From the NCBI GenBank assembly GCA_014729555.1, contig WJJT01000021.1:1-57978 (forward strand): 57,978 bases of DNA. Reading direction: 5' to 3'. Position numbers and translations under genes: made by a program. This document shows, piece after piece, positions 2,210-57,789 of the stretch; within the stretch, counting starts at the first letter, position 1, and the number at the start of each line of letters is the position of its first letter. The notes beneath the pieces are model-generated. The model saw only the letters and a program-made list of their open reading frames with translations. It was not told the origin of the DNA and made no database searches. The DNA is from Candidatus Woesearchaeota archaeon. GTDB lineage: Archaea; Nanobdellota; Nanobdellia; Woesearchaeales; ARS49.

Positions 2210-3154
2210 TTATATTTTCTTTATCTTCGCTACAAAAAACCCTTCTGTATCATTGTCCTGAGGCCATAGTCTTAAGCATTTCTTGATGCTTGGATTATAC
2301 TTCGTCTTCTCAAACTCTAATACAGGAGAACCGCGGTTGATATCTAAGTTGATTTCCACTAATTCAGCATCTTCTCTGTTGCGCAATAAATAATCAACAA
2401 CCCCTTCATTTTCCTCAGGCTCTAAAGAACAGGTTGAATAAACCATCACGCCGTCTTTCTTCAGCAAATCAAATGAATTTAATATTAATCTCTTCTGCAT
2501 TCCTGCTATGCTGGTAACTGTTTTTGGATTCCACCATTTAATTGTTTTAATACTTTTTCTAATCGTGCCTGTTCCAGAGCAGGGTGCATCCAAAAGAACC
2601 TTGTCAAAAGAATATCCTTTAATCCTCTCCCCTTTCATTTGCGTTACAACTGTATTACTAACCCCGCACCGTTGTAAGTTAATACCAAGTGCTGCCAGTC
2701 TCTGTCCTACTACATCATTTGCAATCAACACCCCTTTATTCTGCATGTATTGGGCTATCTGCGAACTTTTTGAGCCTGGCGCTGCGCAGACATCTAATAC
2801 TATTTCCCCTGGTTTTGGATCCAAAACAATTGGTGGTATCATTGAAGCAGCTTCTTGTACATAATAATATCCCAGTGCATGTTCTACAGTATTGCCTGCA
2901 TCAAGCCGGCCTTCTTTGTGCTCAACAAATAATCCTTCTTTGCACCAGGGTATCTCTTTGATTTCCCAGTTAGAACTTAACCTTTTCTTGATTTCACTTA
3001 TTGGCTTCTTCAGTGTATTCACGCGTATAGATTTCCGCAAGAAACATAGTGTATACTTCTTGAACTCCTCCCAATCAGTCAACTCAGAATATCTCTCAAC
3101 AAACTTAGGTTTAAACTCTATGTCTTCTGTTCCTGGTATCTTTTTCAGCTTCAT
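2210..3154 (-). CDS. NOL1/NOP2/Sun-family RNA (cytosine-C5) methyltransferase
   Basis: SAM motif VLDVCAAPGSKSSQ. Catalytic motifs DAPCSGTGTIRK and YSTCSLEPEENE. 4-nt overlap with the upstream elp3. Confidence 0.9.
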   Translation of the reverse strand: MKLKKIPGTEDIEFKPKFVERYSELTDWEEFKKYTLCFLRKSIRVNTLKKPISEIKKRLSSNWEIKEIPWCKEGLFVEHKEGRLDAGNTVEHALGYYYVQEAASMIPPIVLDPKPGEIVLDVCAAPGSKSSQIAQYMQNKGVLIANDVVGQRLAALGINLQRCGVSNTVVTQMKGERIKGYSFDKVLLDAPCSGTGTIRKSIKTIKWWNPKTVTSIAGMQKRLILNSFDLLKKDGVMVYSTCSLEPEENEGVVDYLLRNREDAELVEINLDINRGSPVLEFEKTKYNPSIKKCLRLWPQDNDTEGFFVAKIKKI

Positions 3155-4827
3155 AGTTTCTTGCTTACATACACCCCTTCTTTCTTATACCCTAATTTTT
3201 TGTAATACCCGCGCACACCTATCCCTGATATCACCAGCATCTTGTCACATTTAAATTCTTCTTTTGCAATCCTTTCTGCCTCAAGCATCAATTTTTTGCC
3301 CAGGCCTTTGTGCTGAAGAGCCACTCCTTTTTCTCCTACTGGAACTGCAGTGCCATAGACATGCAATTCCCTTATTCCTGCTGATTTTTTTGTTATCTCT
3401 GGCCTGAAAGGCTTGTAAGGAATACGTAACCTGCAAAATCCAAGCAAAACATCTCCAACTTCTGCTGATAAAAAAACTTCTTTTCCTTTGCTTGCAGTAT
3501 AATCCGTTCTTTTAATCATACTTTTTGAAAAATCAATTTTCCGGCCTTTTGGTTCTCTGCAACGAATACATTTGCACTTTATATTCTTGTCTTTCAGTAT
3601 TTTTGAGACATACTGCCGCAAATTAGTCCTGTCCACACCTGCAGATATCATTGTAGTGGGTATATCCCTTTGTACTCTCATCACCCGGCAATATGTAGGA
3701 ATGTACTTCTTTGCCTGTGCTATTATTTTTGCTGCAACAGATGTTGTCAGAGGCTTATATTTCTTGGCTTTCCATAAGTCATAAAGTTCTGTTCCCTCTA
3801 TAACCATGCAGGGATATATCTTCAGTGCATCTGGCTTGAAATCAGGATTTGAAAATAATTCTTTAAACATAGCAGTATCTTTTTCAGGGCTTGAGCCTGG
3901 AAGTCCGGGCATAAGGTGATACCCTGTCTTTAGGAAAGAATCTTTCATTAATTGTGTTGCTTTTACAGCATCCTGGACACTATGTCCTCTTTTTATTTTG
4001 CGCATTACATCTTCATATACTGTCTGCACTCCCAGCTCCACTCTTGTTCCTCCTAGTTTTAGCATTTCATTAATCTCTTTCTTAAAGCAGTAATCAGGCC
4101 TTGTTTCCAAGCACATTGCAACACACCGTATCTTAGACTTCTCATTCCTTTTTTGCTCTTTGGCAAGTGTTGACTTCCCTTTTAACTTAATCATCCTTTC
4201 TTGAATCCGTTTAACTCTTTCATCATCACGCATGTCTCCTGGCATCTCAAAAAACTCTTTATACCTGGCAAAATCCATTTCACCTTTAGAAAAAAATTCA
4301 TCACCAAAGTCATTCATTGCCTTTAGTGCATAAGTGATAAACTCTTCCTGATATTTTGAATCAAAACCAGGAAAAGTTCCCCCCATAACAATCAACTCAA
4401 CCTTATCCGGCATATGCCCCAGGGCAATATACTGCTCTAAACGATTAAACACCTGTAAATAAGCATCATACTTGTTCCTTATCGCCCGCATTGTTGCAGG
4501 TTCCTGGCCTGTATAGCTCTGCGGGACATCCCCAAAAAAGCTTGACGGCCCTCCTGGGCAGTACATGCACCGCCCATGCTTGCAGGCAAAGGGATAGCTC
4601 ATCACAGCCACCACTGCCACTCCTGATTGTGTTCTCATTGGTTTTACAACAACATCCATTTCAGAAATATCTTCTGGAGAAGCATGCAGTAAAATCTCTA
4701 TGTCTGTTGGTGGCTGTCTTACGCCGTATTTCTGGCATAGTTTGTTCTTTAGTTTGGACAGTTTTTCTCTTGGCAGTTTTTTCTGTTTTAATGCCTCTAT
4801 CAGTTCTTGAATTAATTTTTTGTTCAT
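3151..4827 (-). CDS. elp3: Elp3-type radical SAM / GNAT tRNA-modification enzyme
   Basis: Radical-SAM cluster motif CKHGRCMYCPGG. C-terminal GNAT segment LQHKGLGKKLMLEAERIAKEE. Length of 558 aa is typical of archaeal Elp3. Confidence 0.9.
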   Translation of the reverse strand: MNKKLIQELIEALKQKKLPREKLSKLKNKLCQKYGVRQPPTDIEILLHASPEDISEMDVVVKPMRTQSGVAVVAVMSYPFACKHGRCMYCPGGPSSFFGDVPQSYTGQEPATMRAIRNKYDAYLQVFNRLEQYIALGHMPDKVELIVMGGTFPGFDSKYQEEFITYALKAMNDFGDEFFSKGEMDFARYKEFFEMPGDMRDDERVKRIQERMIKLKGKSTLAKEQKRNEKSKIRCVAMCLETRPDYCFKKEINEMLKLGGTRVELGVQTVYEDVMRKIKRGHSVQDAVKATQLMKDSFLKTGYHLMPGLPGSSPEKDTAMFKELFSNPDFKPDALKIYPCMVIEGTELYDLWKAKKYKPLTTSVAAKIIAQAKKYIPTYCRVMRVQRDIPTTMISAGVDRTNLRQYVSKILKDKNIKCKCIRCREPKGRKIDFSKSMIKRTDYTASKGKEVFLSAEVGDVLLGFCRLRIPYKPFRPEITKKSAGIRELHVYGTAVPVGEKGVALQHKGLGKKLMLEAERIAKEEFKCDKMLVISGIGVRGYYKKLGYKKEGVYVSKKL

Positions 4828-31625: not shown

Positions 31626-32618
31626 TTATCTTGTATTCCTAAAAAAAGAATCAACATCTATTTCTGGAAGCTTTATTGTTTTCTTTAACTGTCTGTATTG
31701 ATGCTTTGCTTCTGCTATATGCAGTCTTGCTGTTGTTTTTCTCAGGTATTCTGTCGGCAGTTTTTTGTTTATTATCTCAAAAGAGCGAATTATCTCCCAG
31801 AGCAGATAATGGTGTCTCATCAGTATTGCATAGTTTCTTGCTCTGCTTAAGACTGTTTTGTCTTTTCTTATTTTGTGATACTCTTTCAGGAATAGATTGA
31901 GTAATCTGCCTTTGAAGCCAAGGTTTATCATAACACAGCTTATATCTCTTGCAGGGTCTGATAACTCAAGTGATTCCCAGTCAATTAGTTTTAGCTTATT
32001 GTTTTTTGTTTGTATAATATTCTGGGGATACACATCTCCGTGAGTAAGTCCAATTTTATGCGTTTCTTTTTTTGGCATGGCGTCTTTAATAGAAGTATGC
32101 AGCCTTTTTAATTCACCGGCAAATTCGTTGTTTGTGTATTTGTTGATTTTTCTTTCAAATTCTTTGCTTTGTTTGAGGTTTTCTTTGTAAGAGAGCCATT
32201 TTTTGTCTTTTTTCAATAGTTTGCTTTTTTTGTTATGCAATTTTGCAAGAACAATTGCTAATTCTTTTGCTTGCGCAGCAGTATAATCTCTTTTTCGCAT
32301 CCGGAATGGCTTGCCTCCAATGTATTCAAGGATTATAAAGCTCTGCAGGCAGGATCTGTCTGCTTTATGTAGATAAACTGCTTTGGGCCCTACATCAAGT
32401 CCTTCAATTGCTTTAAGGCAGGCATATTCTTTTTTTACTCTTTCAGTCTCACCGCAGAAGTTCACTCTACATACGAATTTCTTGTTTTTGATGGAAAAAA
32501 TATAGTTAAGGTTGCATTCACCAAGGCCTAGTTTTTTGAAAGAATTTATTTTAATAGAATCAAAACCCAGTTCTGCTGGTTTTATTCTATTTATCGCCTC
32601 TTTTATGCTTTGTTTCAT
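31626..32618 (-). CDS. aminoglycoside/choline-kinase-family phosphotransferase (APH fold)
   Basis: Catalytic loop LTHGDVYPQNII and LIDWESLELSDPARDI. Confidence 0.75.
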   Translation of the reverse strand: MKQSIKEAINRIKPAELGFDSIKINSFKKLGLGECNLNYIFSIKNKKFVCRVNFCGETERVKKEYACLKAIEGLDVGPKAVYLHKADRSCLQSFIILEYIGGKPFRMRKRDYTAAQAKELAIVLAKLHNKKSKLLKKDKKWLSYKENLKQSKEFERKINKYTNNEFAGELKRLHTSIKDAMPKKETHKIGLTHGDVYPQNIIQTKNNKLKLIDWESLELSDPARDISCVMINLGFKGRLLNLFLKEYHKIRKDKTVLSRARNYAILMRHHYLLWEIIRSFEIINKKLPTEYLRKTTARLHIAEAKHQYRQLKKTIKLPEIDVDSFFRNTR

Positions 32619-32620
32619 TG

Positions 32621-33295
32621 CTATTTCTCAATCCCGTCCCAGCTTCCGTGCAGATGTTTTGGAACCATTGAAGTGTCAGCATATATTTTGAATCCTGCGT
32701 TAATCACATCTAAAGAAAACATCATGTCATCAAAGCCTTCTTCATATCTGAACTCAACCTTCTCAAGGACATCTTTGTGAATAAGCACGCAGCTAAAAGA
32801 ACAAGCTTTCAATTCAACTAATTGTTCTTTCTCCAGCTCTTGTTTTGGCAGATACCATAGCCCTGTCGGATCTACTGGATGCTCTACATATGCCATTGGC
32901 ATTAGTTCTATTTTATTGCCTACTGGCAGATTATTGTAAACTATTCCTGATACTATTTTCTTGTCATGCCTTACTAGTTTCTGTATAATATCTGGTTCTG
33001 GAATCACGTCCTGCTCTAAACTCAGGAAATAATCATAATCATTCTCCAGGGCATATTTTCTTATTTTGTTTCTGCTTTGCTTTATTCTCTCTCTTGCACT
33101 GTCATGCCACTCATTTCGAAAGACTTTAAATCCTAGTGCTTCTATCATTTTTGAATACCCGCTTTCTTTGGAATTATCAACAATGAGAACATCAAAATTA
33201 TCATAAGTTAGTTTCTTGAGTGCCTCTGCATACTCTTTCAAGCAGTATTTTTTCCCGTCCCATGTCGGACACCCTACTAATACTTTTGGTTTCAT
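32621..33295 (-). CDS. glycosyltransferase-like protein (putative)
   Basis: N-terminal beta-alpha pattern VLVGCPTWDGKKYCLKEYAEALKKLTYDNFDVLIVDNS resembles GT-A/GT2-like enzymes. No firm DxD assignment. Confidence 0.4.
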   Translation of the reverse strand: MKPKVLVGCPTWDGKKYCLKEYAEALKKLTYDNFDVLIVDNSKESGYSKMIEALGFKVFRNEWHDSARERIKQSRNKIRKYALENDYDYFLSLEQDVIPEPDIIQKLVRHDKKIVSGIVYNNLPVGNKIELMPMAYVEHPVDPTGLWYLPKQELEKEQLVELKACSFSCVLIHKDVLEKVEFRYEEGFDDMMFSLDVINAGFKIYADTSMVPKHLHGSWDGIEK

Positions 33296-33705
33296 ATGTT
33301 TAGCTTGACCTCTTCTCCTATTTGAATGTTGTGTTTTTCTGAAAATCCTGAATTTATTTCAAGCACGTATTTTGCCTCTGCTTTTGGTATATAATTTTTG
33401 CAGGGTTCTTTTTCACACGGTTCTGCAGTTAGGATATCAACTATTGTATTTTCTGAATTGATGAATACCATATCTAGAGGAATTAATGTATTTTTCATCC
33501 AGAAACCGTGTTTTCTTTCTTCGTCAAAGACAAAAAGCATTCCATCATTCTCCCCTAAATGCTCTCTGTGCATAAGTCCTCTTGCCATCTCTGCAGGTGT
33601 TTCAGGCACTTCTACAGACACTTTTGTATCACCTATTTCAACACAAGGCCTGGAAGTGCAGGCAATTAAAGCAAAGAGTAATGGTATTAAGATTGTTTTT
33701 TTCAT
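33292..33705 (-). CDS. DUF192 domain protein, lipoprotein-type signal
   Basis: LLFALIACTS lipobox. MLFVFDEERKHGFWMKNTLIPLDMVFI is the DUF192 core. Confidence 0.75.
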   Translation of the reverse strand: MKKTILIPLLFALIACTSRPCVEIGDTKVSVEVPETPAEMARGLMHREHLGENDGMLFVFDEERKHGFWMKNTLIPLDMVFINSENTIVDILTAEPCEKEPCKNYIPKAEAKYVLEINSGFSEKHNIQIGEEVKLNI

Positions 33706-34316
33706 GGCAGTTCACTTATGTTGATTATGCTCACTTTCTCATCTGCAATCCTGGGGCATGCTGTGTTTACCCAGCACTCTATGAACAGGAAGTTTTCTAG
33801 GTCAGAAGGGTTTAGTGTGTCAAATGCAAATATGTAATATTCTTTGTCTTTTTTTGCAGCTAATTCCAATGCTTTATCTATTCTGTTTTGCCCGTGCTTT
33901 ACTGAAACTAATATTCCTATCTTATTTGAGGAAAGAAATCTTGCCAGTGCTGCGTTTCTTCTTTTTTTGTATTTCTCAATATCTTCATCCTTGACAACAG
34001 ATAGTTTTTGTGTCAAGGGATTCCATTTGAACACTTTCTTGCCTGTCTCTAAAGCAACTGCTATTGGATGAAATTCTCCAGAGCCGATGAAAAGAAATGC
34101 ATCCACTTTGTCTGCTATCTGTTTTGCAGTATCAACATTGCATCCTAATACCTGCCCTCCTTTTACAGCCTCTTTTAACTGTGAGATAACTTTGTCTAAT
34201 TCATGCAGATGCTGTATTGTTGTTACCGCACCCAGCTTTGCAGGCAGTGCATTCAGAGCTGATTCTGATAGTTTTGGATCTGCTGTTGATTTTGCAGGTA
34301 TGTGCAGTATTTTCAT
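33702..34316 (-). CDS. dph2: diphthamide synthase Dph2, C-terminal two domains only (split gene, part 2)
   Basis: TTIQHLHEL, GQVLGCN, AFLFIGSGEFHPIAVAL, IGILVSVKHGQ and ECWVNTACPRIA line up with domains 2-3 of archaeal Dph2 (about 340 aa). The N-terminal domain is absent here. Confidence 0.8.
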   Translation of the reverse strand: MKILHIPAKSTADPKLSESALNALPAKLGAVTTIQHLHELDKVISQLKEAVKGGQVLGCNVDTAKQIADKVDAFLFIGSGEFHPIAVALETGKKVFKWNPLTQKLSVVKDEDIEKYKKRRNAALARFLSSNKIGILVSVKHGQNRIDKALELAAKKDKEYYIFAFDTLNPSDLENFLFIECWVNTACPRIADEKVSIINISELP

Positions 34317-34352
34317 ATTAAAAATGAAAAAATAGAAGATATAAAAAGGTAT

Positions 34353-34667: not shown

Positions 34668-35396
34668 TTATTTAAATCTTGTGGTTTCCCATAATTTCTT
34701 GATTGCATGCTCTGCAATTGGTTTTAGATTCACTATGTCTTCTTCATTATATTGAACAAGCAGTTCAATGTATTTCCTGTTTCCGGTCATCCGCCATCTT
34801 CTCCAGAGAAAGGCAATGTCTATTTCATCCTTGAATGTCTCTTCTTTTCTTTTTACTCCTAACTGCCGTTCAATATGCTCTAATCCGCCTGTTAATCCTA
34901 TTTTTTGGCACACAAACCGCAGGTCAACATGCGGTATCTTGAAGTCAAAGTTAAAGTATCTCCTCAAAGCAGGCAGGTCAAAGCTTGAACCATTGAAAGT
35001 AACTACCAGTTTATGCTTTGATATTTCTTTTTCCAGTAATCTTTTGTCAAAATTAAATCCTCTCACCATTGTTTTTGTTTCATACCCGTCAAATAATCCT
35101 ATTACAGACACGTTTCCTTCTATGTCTAGAAATATTGTTTCGTCCTTGAATTGTTCATAAAGTCTCCAGTGCTCGCCTGAGGGTAACAAGGAAGCAAAGT
35201 ATTCTGCAGCATCCTTTAATAATTTCTGCCTTGCCTCAAGTAATTGTAAATCAAATTTTTCCTTTCTTTTCTTTGATATTCCTTTTATTTTCTCTGCTTT
35301 TAAGAAGTCATTCCAGCAGGAAACGCCTTGTTTCCATATGTTTTGCTCTGTTTTATGGCTTATTTTGTCTAAAAAGATAAAGCTCTCTCTTATCAT
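34668..35396 (-). CDS. RNase H-like / PolB-exonuclease-like 3'-5' exonuclease (YprB-type)
   Basis: Acidic motifs IFLDIEG, VVTFNGSSFDLPAL and YNEEDIVNL fit the DEDD-like RNase_H_2 family. Confidence 0.7.
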   Translation of the reverse strand: MIRESFIFLDKISHKTEQNIWKQGVSCWNDFLKAEKIKGISKKRKEKFDLQLLEARQKLLKDAAEYFASLLPSGEHWRLYEQFKDETIFLDIEGNVSVIGLFDGYETKTMVRGFNFDKRLLEKEISKHKLVVTFNGSSFDLPALRRYFNFDFKIPHVDLRFVCQKIGLTGGLEHIERQLGVKRKEETFKDEIDIAFLWRRWRMTGNRKYIELLVQYNEEDIVNLKPIAEHAIKKLWETTRFK

Positions 35397-37325: not shown

Positions 37326-37982
37326 TCACGGCAGTTTCTTTAAAAGCTTTAGTATTTCAACTGCTTTCTTAGGCTCCCCTCTTCCTACAGGAAAGTAAGA
37401 AGGTATCACTTTATATGTCTCAGAATCAATTTTCAGGCCATAAGTTCTTAATTTCTTTGTCTTCATTGCTTCTTTGTAATACTCCCCTAGTTTTATCTTG
37501 CGCCCCGTCAGGTGTTCAAATGGTATCAGCCCCATTGTGACTATGTATTTGGGATTCACTATCTTGATTTCTTCTTTCAAGAGAGGAATATATGCTTTTA
37601 TTTTTCTGGCTTTGGGGAGGTCTGCTGTTTCCCCTGTCCATTTGACGATGTTTGTCAGGTAAAGCCCTTGTTTTGCGATTGATTTATAGACTTTTTCTGC
37701 GAGAAATGTGGACCAGGTGTCGCTTTTTTCTATGACTTTCATCAGCTGGCTGTTGAACAGGCCTGCCTTATGGAGGACTCTCCATACTGGTTTTGTGCCT
37801 ATGAACGGTGCTCTAAAGCCTTTCCATCCTGGATGAGAGCTTATATTTGCCTTGGTTGGGTTGATAAAAACCAGCATGAATTTTGGGTTTTTGCATTTCC
37901 CGTTTCCCATTATTGGATTATATCTGCTGGGAAATTCCTTGCTTAGCTTGTCAACTTCTTTCCAGATTTCCTTTAGTTTCAT
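37326..37982 (-). CDS. uracil-DNA glycosylase superfamily protein (atypical motif 1)
   Basis: FMLVFINPT (motif-1 position, closer to the GINPG/GMNPG of MUG/SMUG than to family-4 GEAPG). LYLTNIVKW, PKYIVTMGLIPFEHL. No C-terminal HPS motif. Confidence 0.6.
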   Translation of the reverse strand: MKLKEIWKEVDKLSKEFPSRYNPIMGNGKCKNPKFMLVFINPTKANISSHPGWKGFRAPFIGTKPVWRVLHKAGLFNSQLMKVIEKSDTWSTFLAEKVYKSIAKQGLYLTNIVKWTGETADLPKARKIKAYIPLLKEEIKIVNPKYIVTMGLIPFEHLTGRKIKLGEYYKEAMKTKKLRTYGLKIDSETYKVIPSYFPVGRGEPKKAVEILKLLKKLP

Positions 37983-38683
37983 TTGAGCGTGAAATATACT
38001 CTTCTGTTGTTCTTTCCTTTGTTCTCTGCATTAACTGCTTCTATCTCTCCCACCTCTTTTGTTGATTTTACGTGTGTTCCGCCGTCTGCCTGCGTGTCAA
38101 ATCCCTCTATCTCTACCATTCTCAATTCTTTTACAGCTGGAGGCAGGACATTTGCAAGTTTTGTTACAGAGGGTATTTTAATCGCCTCATCTCTTGGAAG
38201 TGTGTATATCTTGATCGGCAGATCCTTTTGAACAATCTCGTTTGCTTTTGCAGTATATTCTTTTATTTTCTCCCTGTCAAAGTTCTCTAGGCTGAAATCG
38301 ATGCGGGACTTGTCTGTATTCAGTTGGTTTCCTGTTATCATTGCTCCTGTTTCTTTGTGGAATATTTCTGAGAGTATGTGTGCTGCTGTGTGCATTCTCA
38401 TTAGCTTGTGTCTTCTGTCCCAGTCAAGCGCTCCGTGCACCTTATCACCTGTTTGCAAGCCTTCTTTGTCCACTTCATGGCTCACGTCCGGCCCTTTTTT
38501 CTTTGCAAACATCACTGTATATTCTTCTCCGTCTGTTATAAGCTTTCCTTTGTCTGTTGGCTGTCCTCCGCCCTGTGGATAGAATGCTGTTTTGTCTAAT
38601 ACAATGAATTTGCCGTCAACTTTTTTCACAACTGCATCAAATTCTTTTGCATAGCAGTCATTCATGTATATTAGTTCTGTCAT
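37979..38683 (-). CDS. alaX: alanyl-tRNA editing protein AlaX (AlaX-M type)
   Basis: TAFYPQGGGQPTDKG, Zn motif MRMHTAAHILS, ADGGTHVKST. Confidence 0.9.
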   Translation of the reverse strand: MTELIYMNDCYAKEFDAVVKKVDGKFIVLDKTAFYPQGGGQPTDKGKLITDGEEYTVMFAKKKGPDVSHEVDKEGLQTGDKVHGALDWDRRHKLMRMHTAAHILSEIFHKETGAMITGNQLNTDKSRIDFSLENFDREKIKEYTAKANEIVQKDLPIKIYTLPRDEAIKIPSVTKLANVLPPAVKELRMVEIEGFDTQADGGTHVKSTKEVGEIEAVNAENKGKNNRRVYFTLK

Positions 38684-55722: not shown

Positions 55723-56160
55723 TTAAGTAAAAAAAAACATGCCTGCAGCCACTGCTAAAAACACCACTATATTTAGTATTATCTCTTTCTTATTTTTCAT
55801 CAATGAGCCTGCCGGAAGCCCGTAAAGAAAAATAACTCCGCTTATTAATAAGAAACTGCCAGTTAGTGAAGCTAGATACATTCCCAATCCCAGGATCACA
55901 GAGATAAAATATGTTGGTATTTTCTTGGACCAGCTTAAATAAACAAAGATTATCAAGGCTCCTGTCCAGGTGTAGTGAACATTTGTTCTGTTGAAATGCA
56001 TCACTAAAAAAACAGTTAGGCAAAACAAGAATTTCTGCAGTATCAGGAAATATTTCTTTCCTGGCTTTATTTCCTCCTTTGCAATCCTGGCAAGCGCTCT
56101 TCCTGATACTAAACCAAGTGCAGCAACAACAGCAGCCAGCACATAATTTATGACTTCCAT
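55723..56160 (-). CDS. four-TM membrane protein (hypothetical)
   Basis: 145-aa ORF with four hydrophobic helices. Its start overlaps the stop of the Dph2 N-domain gene by 13 nt. Confidence 0.6.
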   Translation of the reverse strand: MEVINYVLAAVVAALGLVSGRALARIAKEEIKPGKKYFLILQKFLFCLTVFLVMHFNRTNVHYTWTGALIIFVYLSWSKKIPTYFISVILGLGMYLASLTGSFLLISGVIFLYGLPAGSLMKNKKEIILNIVVFLAVAAGMFFFT

Positions 56161-56402
56161 TCAGAATGCCCCCATTGTATCAATAAGTCAACTCCTAAAT
56201 CCTCTGCTTGTTTTGGAATGTCACAAGCACCATAACAAGAGCCAAGCCATATTATTACCTCTGCGCGTGTTTTTTCTTTCAGTTCTTTTGCAATCTTTTC
56301 AGCCTCTGGCTTCAGGCCATCAGGAAGCTGCACACAAACACGTTTAGCTTTTGTCTTTTTTATCTCTTCACAAGCCTTCTCTAATTCTAAGTCATATTCC
56401 AT
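56148..56402 (-). CDS. dph2: diphthamide synthase Dph2, N-terminal domain only (split gene, part 1)
   Basis: MEYDLELEKACEEIKKTKAKRVCVQLPDGLKPEAEKIAKELKEKTRAEVIIWLGSCYGACDIPKQAEDLGVDLLIQWGHS matches Dph2 domain 1, including the CYGACD cluster-ligand region. It ends where the 33702-34316 product begins to align. Start set at the ATG at 56402. Confidence 0.75.
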   Translation of the reverse strand: MEYDLELEKACEEIKKTKAKRVCVQLPDGLKPEAEKIAKELKEKTRAEVIIWLGSCYGACDIPKQAEDLGVDLLIQWGHSEWKS

Positions 56403-56498
56403 AGAACGAACAATATCTGATGATTTTAAAAAACTATTGATAATCCGAGCATTAGCGAGGACTAGCTGCACAAAGTGCCCTTTCTATTTTTAGAAAAC

Positions 56499-56530: not shown

Positions 56531-56618
56531 GCCCCTGTAGCTTAGTGGTAGAGCGTGCGGCTGTTAAACTCAATTTTTAGAAACCGCAAGGTCGCAGGTT
56601 CAAATCCTGCCGGGGGCG
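56531..56618 (+). tRNA. tRNA-Asn(GUU) with 16-nt intron at 37/38
   Basis: Manual fold. Acceptor GCCCCTG/CGGGGGC. D arm GCTT-AGTGGTA-GAGC. Anticodon stem TGCGG/CCGCA with loop CTGTTAA interrupted by 16 nt (about 56567-56582). T arm GCAGG-TTCAAAT-CCTGC. Discriminator G. T-run after the 3' end. Confidence 0.85.
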
Positions 56619-56640: not shown

Positions 56641-57789
56641 TTATTTCTTTTTAGGCAAAGTATATTCATTAGTGAAATAATCCTGCATTCTCTCTGTCAA
56701 GCCGCTGCTGGCTTCTGCTCTGCAGCTTGCCACTGCACTGCAGAAAGCATTTGCATCAGAAACGCCGTGTCCTTTTTTCAGTATGGCGCTTCTGTATTGT
56801 GCACGTGATCTCAGGCCGTGAAGTGTTGCAGCGCCATAGCCTTCAAAAGCAAAAAGTTTTATCAGCCTGCTTATCACATTTCTGGGAATATTTTCTACTT
56901 TTTTCATAATCGCGCCCATTTCCGGCTGGGGTTTAATCTTCCCTTGCTCGACTGCAATTTGATAATCCAGGACTATATCTTTAACAGTGTCTGAAATGAA
57001 ATGTTTTGTATAACCTAAGATCGTCTCTGCTTTTGCCTCTATTGCCTTTAGTATAAGGTTTCCTGTGTGTCCGTCAATCACTACTGCATGAGCCTTGCTT
57101 AGTTCTGCATCTCTTGGCTCTGCTCTGCTTACATTTATTGTTTCTATTCCTGCAGCTTCGCAAAGCTCCATTGTTCTTCTGACTAATTTGTTTCCTTTGT
57201 ATACTTCTGAGCCGACTGTTAATATGCCTATTTTTGGATCTGTGATTCCTTCTCTTTCATCCAGGACTATTCTTGCGATTTGGGCAAATTGATACAAGTG
57301 GTGTGCTCTGCAAACCATGTTTGCGCCTATGTCTAAGTAAAGCACTTTATCTGCTGCATCTCTTACCTTGATGAATTCTGCGAGAGGCAGCTGGTCTACG
57401 TTAGGCATTGCAAAATCATGCAGTTTTCCGGCGATGTGCTGTATTATTTTGGTTGTGTCGCCTATTGTCAATCCGCCGTCAAAATCTTGTCCAATGCCGT
57501 CTACGAGTTTGTTCAAAGAACTGCAGGATAGGTTATGCGAATCAAAATAAGTTTCTGCTGGTTCGATATGCACCGGGACTTTAACATCCAGTTCGTCTAA
57601 TTCTCTTTTAATATCATCTTCATGGCCAATAAGAACAAGTTCGCTGTTTTTTTGTTCATTAAGTGCTTTTACTGCACCTTTTACTGCTCTTTCAACAACT
57701 GGCTGTTCTCTTCGCTTTCCATCCAAGCCCACTACATACTGGTCTCCCCCCAGGGTATCAACAGCGATTATTGTTTGGTATTCACTCAT
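56641..57789 (-). CDS. plsX: PlsX-family (phosphate acyltransferase-like) protein, divergent
   Basis: IAVDTLGGD, YLDIGANMVCRAHHLYQFA, PKIGILTVGSEVYKGN, VVIDGHTGNLILKAIEA and YGAATLHGL...KKGHGVSD line up with PlsX motifs. An insertion follows GGD, and the central AGNTGA region is diverged. Confidence 0.7.
   Translation of the reverse strand: MSEYQTIIAVDTLGGDQYVVGLDGKRREQPVVERAVKGAVKALNEQKNSELVLIGHEDDIKRELDELDVKVPVHIEPAETYFDSHNLSCSSLNKLVDGIGQDFDGGLTIGDTTKIIQHIAGKLHDFAMPNVDQLPLAEFIKVRDAADKVLYLDIGANMVCRAHHLYQFAQIARIVLDEREGITDPKIGILTVGSEVYKGNKLVRRTMELCEAAGIETINVSRAEPRDAELSKAHAVVIDGHTGNLILKAIEAKAETILGYTKHFISDTVKDIVLDYQIAVEQGKIKPQPEMGAIMKKVENIPRNVISRLIKLFAFEGYGAATLHGLRSRAQYRSAILKKGHGVSDANAFCSAVASCRAEASSGLTERMQDYFTNEYTLPKKK

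Follow-up and report, generated by a model that had tools for sequence, protein, structure and literature searches.

A dph2 gene split into two distant genes in Woesearchaeota, with a breakpoint that probably lies within domain 1

We analyzed a stretch of 57,978 nucleotides from a Candidatus Woesearchaeota archaeon (contig WJJT01000021.1; hereafter, the window) and found that its dph2 is divided between two ORFs on the same strand. The shorter ORF (the N piece) carries the motif CYGACD, and the longer ORF (the C piece) carries the motifs GQVLGCN and VNTACPR; together, they encode 288 aa. The two are separated by 21.8 kb, and the N piece lies upstream in the direction of transcription. A previous sequence-only reading of this DNA had proposed a C-piece ORF with its own ATG, the three motifs, and a domain-1 context as a separate gene about 22 kb away on the same strand, and all of these are present. 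The mechanical ORF of the N piece extends as far as a GTG at 56471. As its homologues are 83-84 aa in length and begin with MEYDLELEK, the start is likely the ATG at 56402. The positions of these ORFs and of the neighboring features are given in Table 1.

Table 1. Positions of the two dph2 pieces and of other features in the window
Feature	Position	Strand	Remarks
APH-family kinase	31626-32618	-	co-oriented with the C piece
GT2-like gene	32621-33295	-	co-oriented with the C piece
DUF192	33292-33705	-	directly after the C piece, co-oriented
dph2 C piece	33702-34316	-	204 aa plus stop; ATG start; ligands Cys59 (GQVLGC) and Cys187 (NTACPR)
TATA-like box (TTTTTATAT)	34339-34347	-	23-31 nt upstream of the C-piece ATG
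RNase_H_2-family gene	34668-35396	-	242 aa
AlaX-type gene (putative)	37979-38683	-	234 aa
145-aa predicted membrane protein	55723-56160	-	13-nt overlap of its start with the N-piece end; no Pfam match
dph2 N piece	56148-56402	-	84 aa plus stop; strands 1-3 of domain 1, first cluster ligand Cys60, GH motif
TATA-like box (TTTTTTAAAA)	56424-56433	-	22-31 nt upstream of the N-piece ATG
tRNA-Asn(GTT)	56531-56618	+	88 nt
PlsX-like gene	56641-57789	-	PF02504 FA_synthesis, E 1.4e-24
Elp3-like gene	3151-4827	-	ELP3_N, radical SAM, Radical_SAM_C, and GNAT domains

The C piece had been described as the head of a four-gene operon, and this arrangement was found as proposed: the DUF192, GT2-like, and APH-family genes follow it, with overlaps of 4 nt at the first two junctions and a gap of 2 nt at the third. 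The DUF192 and GT2 genes also stand behind the C piece in close relatives, and the kinase gene is found there in one locus only (L011). In at least 23 of 80 species loci, the DUF192 gene is immediately downstream of the C piece. The DUF192 protein has a lipoprotein-like N terminus (…LLFALIACTS). In about 25 of the 80 loci, the RNase_H_2-family gene has the same orientation as the C piece and is located at most about 1 kb upstream of it. The synteny of the DUF192 and RNase_H_2 genes with the C piece extends well past the close relatives (loci L010-L089), and no functional link is evident.

At the other position, the 13-nt overlap between the N piece and the membrane-protein gene was also observed in three further species (four in all), in which the homologous proteins are 141-149 aa in length. 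The positions of homologues are 6243-6677 in L004, 4243-4668 in L092, and 4243-4692 in L094. The homologues show 27-60% identity and share a conserved AKEE-K-GKKYF motif, and the retention of the same overlap suggests translational coupling of the N piece and the membrane protein. The gene directly upstream of the N piece, in relatives as well as in the window, resembles the gene for PlsX, an enzyme of bacterial-type phospholipid synthesis that here occurs in an archaeon. Between the PlsX-like gene and the N piece lies the tRNA-Asn(GTT) gene, the length of which (88 nt) is to be compared with a model of 71 positions. Inspection by eye places about 16 inserted nucleotides immediately behind the anticodon loop, which corresponds to an intron of the archaeal type. 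On contigs of a Woesearchaeota relative (L004, L005, and L006 1-920, minus strand), a gene that codes for 510 aa and has all of the bacterial sigma-70 regions (PF00140, PF04542, PF04539, and PF04545) is located about 5 kb from the N piece, past the point where the window ends. Such a gene is unexpected in an archaeon.

Two other genes of the window are recorded here. The 234-aa protein, which is also encoded in the relative L001, matches only positions 472-552 of PF01411 (the end of the AlaRS core) and tRNA_SAD, which makes it appear to be a stand-alone editing protein of the AlaX type and not one part of a split AlaRS. The Elp3-like protein is a further Fe-S/SAM enzyme in the same window that acts on the translation apparatus.

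Dph2 is the [4Fe-4S]/SAM enzyme that moves the 3-amino-3-carboxypropyl group onto the diphthamide histidine of EF-2, and it starts diphthamide synthesis. The two ORFs belong to this family and jointly cover its models in a contiguous manner and without overlap, which bears out the earlier proposal that dph2 is a split gene. In PF01866 (curated cut-off, 33.2 bits), the N piece corresponds to positions 1-56 (53.3 bits) and the C piece to positions 64-271 of 302 (136.3 bits). In TIGR00322 (cut-off, 35 bits), they correspond to positions 1-81 (83.4 bits) and 90-299 of 320 (125.7 bits), respectively; both pieces are thus above the cut-offs of these two models. In the archaeal Dph2 equivalog model TIGR03682, the N piece matched positions 1-64 (68.6 bits) and the C piece positions 72-278 of 308 (147.5 bits). 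The cut-off of this model, 202.8 bits, applies to the whole protein, and each piece alone scored below it, as expected for fragments; the rough sum of the two scores is about 216 bits. Alignment with PDB 6bxm_A placed the N piece at residues 5-84 and the C piece at residues 93-292. When three full-length Dph2 sequences were used as tblastn queries against the window, the two pieces were matched in a colinear and non-overlapping manner, and no full-length dph2 was found in the window. No third fragment corresponding to the missing C-terminal tail was found within the window by tblastn.

The three ligands of the [4Fe-4S] cluster in PhDph2 are Cys59, Cys163, and Cys287 (PMC11048331). Cys60 of the N piece and Cys59 and Cys187 of the C piece align with the three ligand positions of the family, one per domain, and Cys60 of the N piece is followed by Asp61, as Cys59 is by Asp60 in PhDph2. 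The distribution of the three ligands over two polypeptides in a ratio of one to two, which the sequence-only reading had pointed out, therefore agrees with the alignment, and the three residues are invariant. The AF2 model of the C piece (pLDDT 95.1) matched the structures 6bxm, 6q2e, and 3lzd with TMq values of 0.83-0.85 and a probability of 1.00. EF-2, Dph5, and Dph6 were not found among the 27 ORFs of the window that were scanned against Pfam. A 723-aa ORF was considered as a candidate for EF-2 and rejected, as it encodes ribonucleotide reductase. Dph5 is reported in Woesearchaeota by two previous studies (PMC6143161 and PMC6349945).

The position of the break was examined by comparison with a full-length homologue, P0360. 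The end of the N piece (…QWGHSEWKS) aligns with GHSKMIE at residues 80-86 of P0360, and the start of the C piece (MKILHIPAKS) aligns with LPVFYIEARD at residues 91-100. The N piece stops five residues past GHS, and the C piece begins at the next conserved element of the family. In the AF2 model of P0360 (pLDDT 94; TM 0.93 and rmsd 1.4 A to M. smithii Dph2, 6q2e), strands are located at residues 23-27, 50-53, 75-79, and 93-96, followed by a helix at 105-112, and the next set of strands begins at 118. In the structure of PhDph2, each domain reportedly consists of a four-stranded parallel sheet with flanking helices. We assigned strand 93-96 to domain 1 on the basis of the AF2 secondary structure, the 4+4+4 pattern of strands, and the published fold. 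The break is therefore probably located in the loop at residues 80-92 (P0360 numbering), which would link strands three and four of domain 1; this placement is well supported, if short of proof. Profile-profile comparison aligned domains 1, 2, and 3 in register, although without significance (E 0.01-0.08, probability below 4%).

This position differs from the boundary between domains 1 and 2, where the break had been placed before. The 204-aa ORF had also been taken to encode domains 2-3 only. It does encode these two domains, but the absence of domain 1 probably does not hold in full: with a break in the 80-92 loop, the ORF corresponds to the end of domain 1 and domains 2-3, minus the C-terminal ~25 residues, and the C piece probably also supplies the fourth strand and the last helix of domain 1. 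When the C piece was modelled alone by AF2, its first 17 residues received no strand assignment, which fits a strand that has its pairing partners in the N piece.

The C piece differs from canonical Dph2 at two other sites. The last ~25 residues are missing, so that the protein ends a few residues into the last helix (33702-33760), and 13 residues are deleted in domain 2, ahead of GQVLGC. Relatives of the C piece with 232 aa end in a different, unrelated-looking tail (…EAGILKLEKEPMSYEVPIWIGKMGLKK). In the N piece, some tryptophans are specific to the split clade: IIW is found in place of the IIS of the full-length P0360 and P0364, and the N pieces of the split clade have QWGHSxW as opposed to H(F/Y)GHxxM. 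As a speculation, these tryptophans may be adaptations at an interface between the pieces.

Hundreds of Woesearchaeota and Nanoarchaeota assemblies encode the N and C halves as separate ORFs, of about 84 aa and 204-250 aa, respectively. Homologues of the C piece form more than 100 clusters of 201-250 aa and, where named, are assigned to Candidatus Woesearchaeota. Those of the N piece likewise fall into more than 100 clusters; almost all of these contain proteins of 80-94 aa, and the names given are Woesearchaeota or Nanoarchaeota. Over the homologue matches as a whole, the names are Candidatus Woesearchaeota, Nanoarchaeota, or Nanoarchaeia. Among the best 150 matches to the C piece in an exhaustive search (representatives at 50% identity), 147 are 156-284 aa in length, and most are aligned from query residue 1. 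Just three are full-length (336, 343, and 336 aa), and the relatives of these three are Dph2 proteins of the Thermoplasmata type. A scan of GTDB species genomes with an alignment of 14 C-piece sequences detected 381 stretches with a coding sequence related to the C piece; the best 80 of them carry almost exclusively Woesearchaeota or Nanoarchaeota labels, plus mislabelled TPA bins. The same breakpoint, which the sequence-only reading had suggested looking for in related genomes, is common to nearly all of the split N and C pieces examined.

Many of the GTDB records with a Woesearchaeota-type C piece (L012, L016, L019, L024, and others) bear the title 'uncultured Methanosarcinales archaeon', and two further records (L046 and L048) carry the titles 'Candidatus Binatia bacterium' and 'Aenigmatarchaeota'. 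The oddly titled records are probably mislabelled or mis-binned MAGs.

Several archaeal lineages are documented to have lost diphthamide synthesis (PMC6143161), and the C piece shows both a shortened C terminus and an internal deletion. The two ORFs could thus be regarded as decaying halves of a pseudogene in a lineage that lost diphthamide, as Korarchaeota and most of the Asgard archaea did. The conservation of the halves argues against this. They are intact ORFs whose ends stay the same across hundreds of species, even at identities as low as about 35-40%, and no variation was seen in the ligand cysteines or the other family motifs: Q35, G58, C59, F82, G134, K140, Q143, N184, and C187 in 58 diverse C pieces, and Q25, L26, P27, G29, C56, G58, C60, D61, G78, and H79 in 27 N pieces and three full-length proteins. 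By the Nei-Gojobori method, comparison with seven relatives gave a dN/dS ratio of 0.05-0.09 for the C piece, and the ratio of the N piece was 0.036; these values are approximate, because dS was saturated in most comparisons. Both halves are under strong purifying selection, and the promoter-like elements described below are conserved. We therefore reject decay, which we regard as very improbable.

The separation of the halves is likewise not peculiar to one contig. In 80 of 80 species-representative loci of the C piece, no match to the N piece was obtained by tblastn in flanks of up to 10 kb on each side, and the halves are thus never neighbors in these loci. In three independent assemblies, the N piece is followed by the C piece on one strand at a distance of 18-22 kb: 21.8 kb in the window, 18.8 kb in JAHWHZ010000001.1, and 17.8 kb in the ENA contig k141_1061911. 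A colinear spacing of about 18-22 kb is kept in close relatives, though the halves are never adjacent. An artefact of assembly or binning, or a rearrangement confined to one contig, had been named as a finding that would overturn the split, and it may be brought to mind by the resemblance of the window to a metagenome-derived contig and by the many mislabelled MAGs among the related records. Independent assemblies from different samples, however, show the same arrangement with the same neighbors, start, stop, and upstream stop codons are present for each piece separately, and the GC content is uniform along the window. The probability of such an artefact is negligible, and we reject it as well.

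Each piece is preceded by an A/T-rich, TATA-like box (Table 1). Similar boxes at the same distance, together with in-frame stop codons upstream, were found in nine relatives of the C piece. From these sequences, we infer that each piece would have its own predicted promoter and that the mRNAs would be leaderless or nearly so.

Taken together, it is very likely that the N and C pieces constitute a functional two-gene archaeal Dph2, although the association of the pieces, the sharing of the cluster, and the activity are inferred. The ancestral single dph2 would have been broken once, in the loop past the GHS motif, in an ancestor of a large clade of Woesearchaeota and Nanoarchaeota, and the halves would have been retained since then as independently transcribed genes. 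The 84-aa N piece and the 204-aa C piece would reassemble non-covalently, with the N-terminal strand of the C piece (KILHI) completing the domain-1 sheet of the N piece. The N piece would contribute one cysteine ligand to the [4Fe-4S] cluster and the C piece two, and the reconstituted N.C unit may dimerize like ordinary Dph2 to give an (N.C)2 enzyme. A stricter form of this proposal is that the N.C assembly is obligate, with the C piece donating a strand to the domain-1 sheet and cysteines of two polypeptides ligating the radical-generating [4Fe-4S] cluster; we lean slightly toward it, and in the literature that we searched, we came across no demonstration of such an arrangement for any Dph2.

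Because the halves are never adjacent, and because each has a conserved partner of its own (the membrane protein with the 13-nt overlap for the N piece, and DUF192, in at least 23 of the 80 loci, for the C piece), they might no longer cooperate: the C piece alone could be a reduced Dph2 with two cysteines, or one or both of the pieces could have taken another role, for example, with the neighboring genes. We consider this unlikely. The N piece keeps the residues that are vital in intact Dph2 (QLPxG, CxGxCD, and GH), and these are as invariant as in the full-length proteins. In addition, a fragment of 84 aa with three strands would hardly be expected to fold by itself, residues 1-17 of the C piece lack pairing in the AF2 model without a partner, and both pieces are present in the same assemblies wherever checked.

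The products might also be joined after translation. Split inteins require roughly 100 + 35 extra residues, and neither the end of the N piece nor the start of the C piece has sequence to spare. PF01866 is the sole Pfam family above the curated cut-off in either piece; the other match, PFK in the N piece, is weak (11.4 bits against a cut-off of 30.9 bits). Trans-splicing by a split intein has a precedent in a related DPANN lineage, the DNA polymerase of Nanoarchaeum equitans (PMC3655853, Table 1), but the lengths of the two pieces lead us to reject it here, and its probability is as slight as that of an assembly artefact. The reading that we prefer is a Dph2 reassembled from two separate polypeptides.

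Whether a split dph2 had been described was left open by the sequence-only reading; it had. In 2013, Podar et al. included a split DPH2 of Nanoarchaeote Nst1 in their Table 1 (PMC3655853; Nst 222-440). Narrowe et al. (2018, PMC6143161) mention a split Dph1/2 in 'several DPANN genomes', and the summary of that work by Dombrowski et al. (2019, PMC6349945) covers Parvarchaeota, Pacearchaeota, Woesearchaeota, and Altiarchaeota. Some homologues carry the NCBI name '2-(3-amino-3-carboxypropyl)histidine synthase subunit'. The split dph2 in the window is thus real and was correctly read, yet it has already been described for Woesearchaeota. [quoted passage not shown] The case of Nst1 is similar in having two distant genes in a reduced DPANN genome, and it differs by lineage, as Nst1 belongs to the hyperthermophilic Nanoarchaeota.

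Canonical Dph2 is a homodimer (P. horikoshii 3LZD, Ca. M. nitroreducens 6BXM, and M. smithii 6Q2D/6Q2E) with the same family models, cysteine ligands, and fold. Its protomer is one chain of ~330-340 aa, whereas the window encodes 84 + 204 aa, with the 13-residue deletion in domain 2 and without the tail of ~25 residues. The presence of two ORFs 21.8 kb apart in place of a single chain is a difference of architecture and is no criterion for function. The eukaryotic Dph1-Dph2 heterodimer resembles the window in that it is made of two different gene products of one family. However, eukaryotic Dph1 and Dph2 are full-length paralogues with one cluster each (PMC11048331), whereas in the window one protomer is cut in two, and a single cluster would be shared between the pieces.

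The main texts of the papers on the split Dph1/2 of DPANN give no breakpoint, structural mapping, gene distance, or selection analysis, and our search of the literature turned up neither biochemical nor structural work on a split Dph2, and no study showing that its pieces assemble, share a cluster across chains, and modify EF-2. Our additions are modest: the probable breakpoint inside domain 1, the non-adjacency of the halves with a colinearity over 18-22 kb, the purifying selection, and the missing tail. As discussed by Narrowe et al. (PMC6143161), Dph2 is a poor single-copy marker for the completeness of DPANN genomes, and the halves need to be concatenated for phylogeny. The breakpoint (after GHS and before the fourth strand), together with the many natural pairs, provides a ready design for biochemistry and for an engineered split of canonical Dph2. 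If the assembly of the N and C pieces is obligate, the Dph2 of these archaea would be a naturally split enzyme whose assembly and cluster insertion may be mutually dependent.
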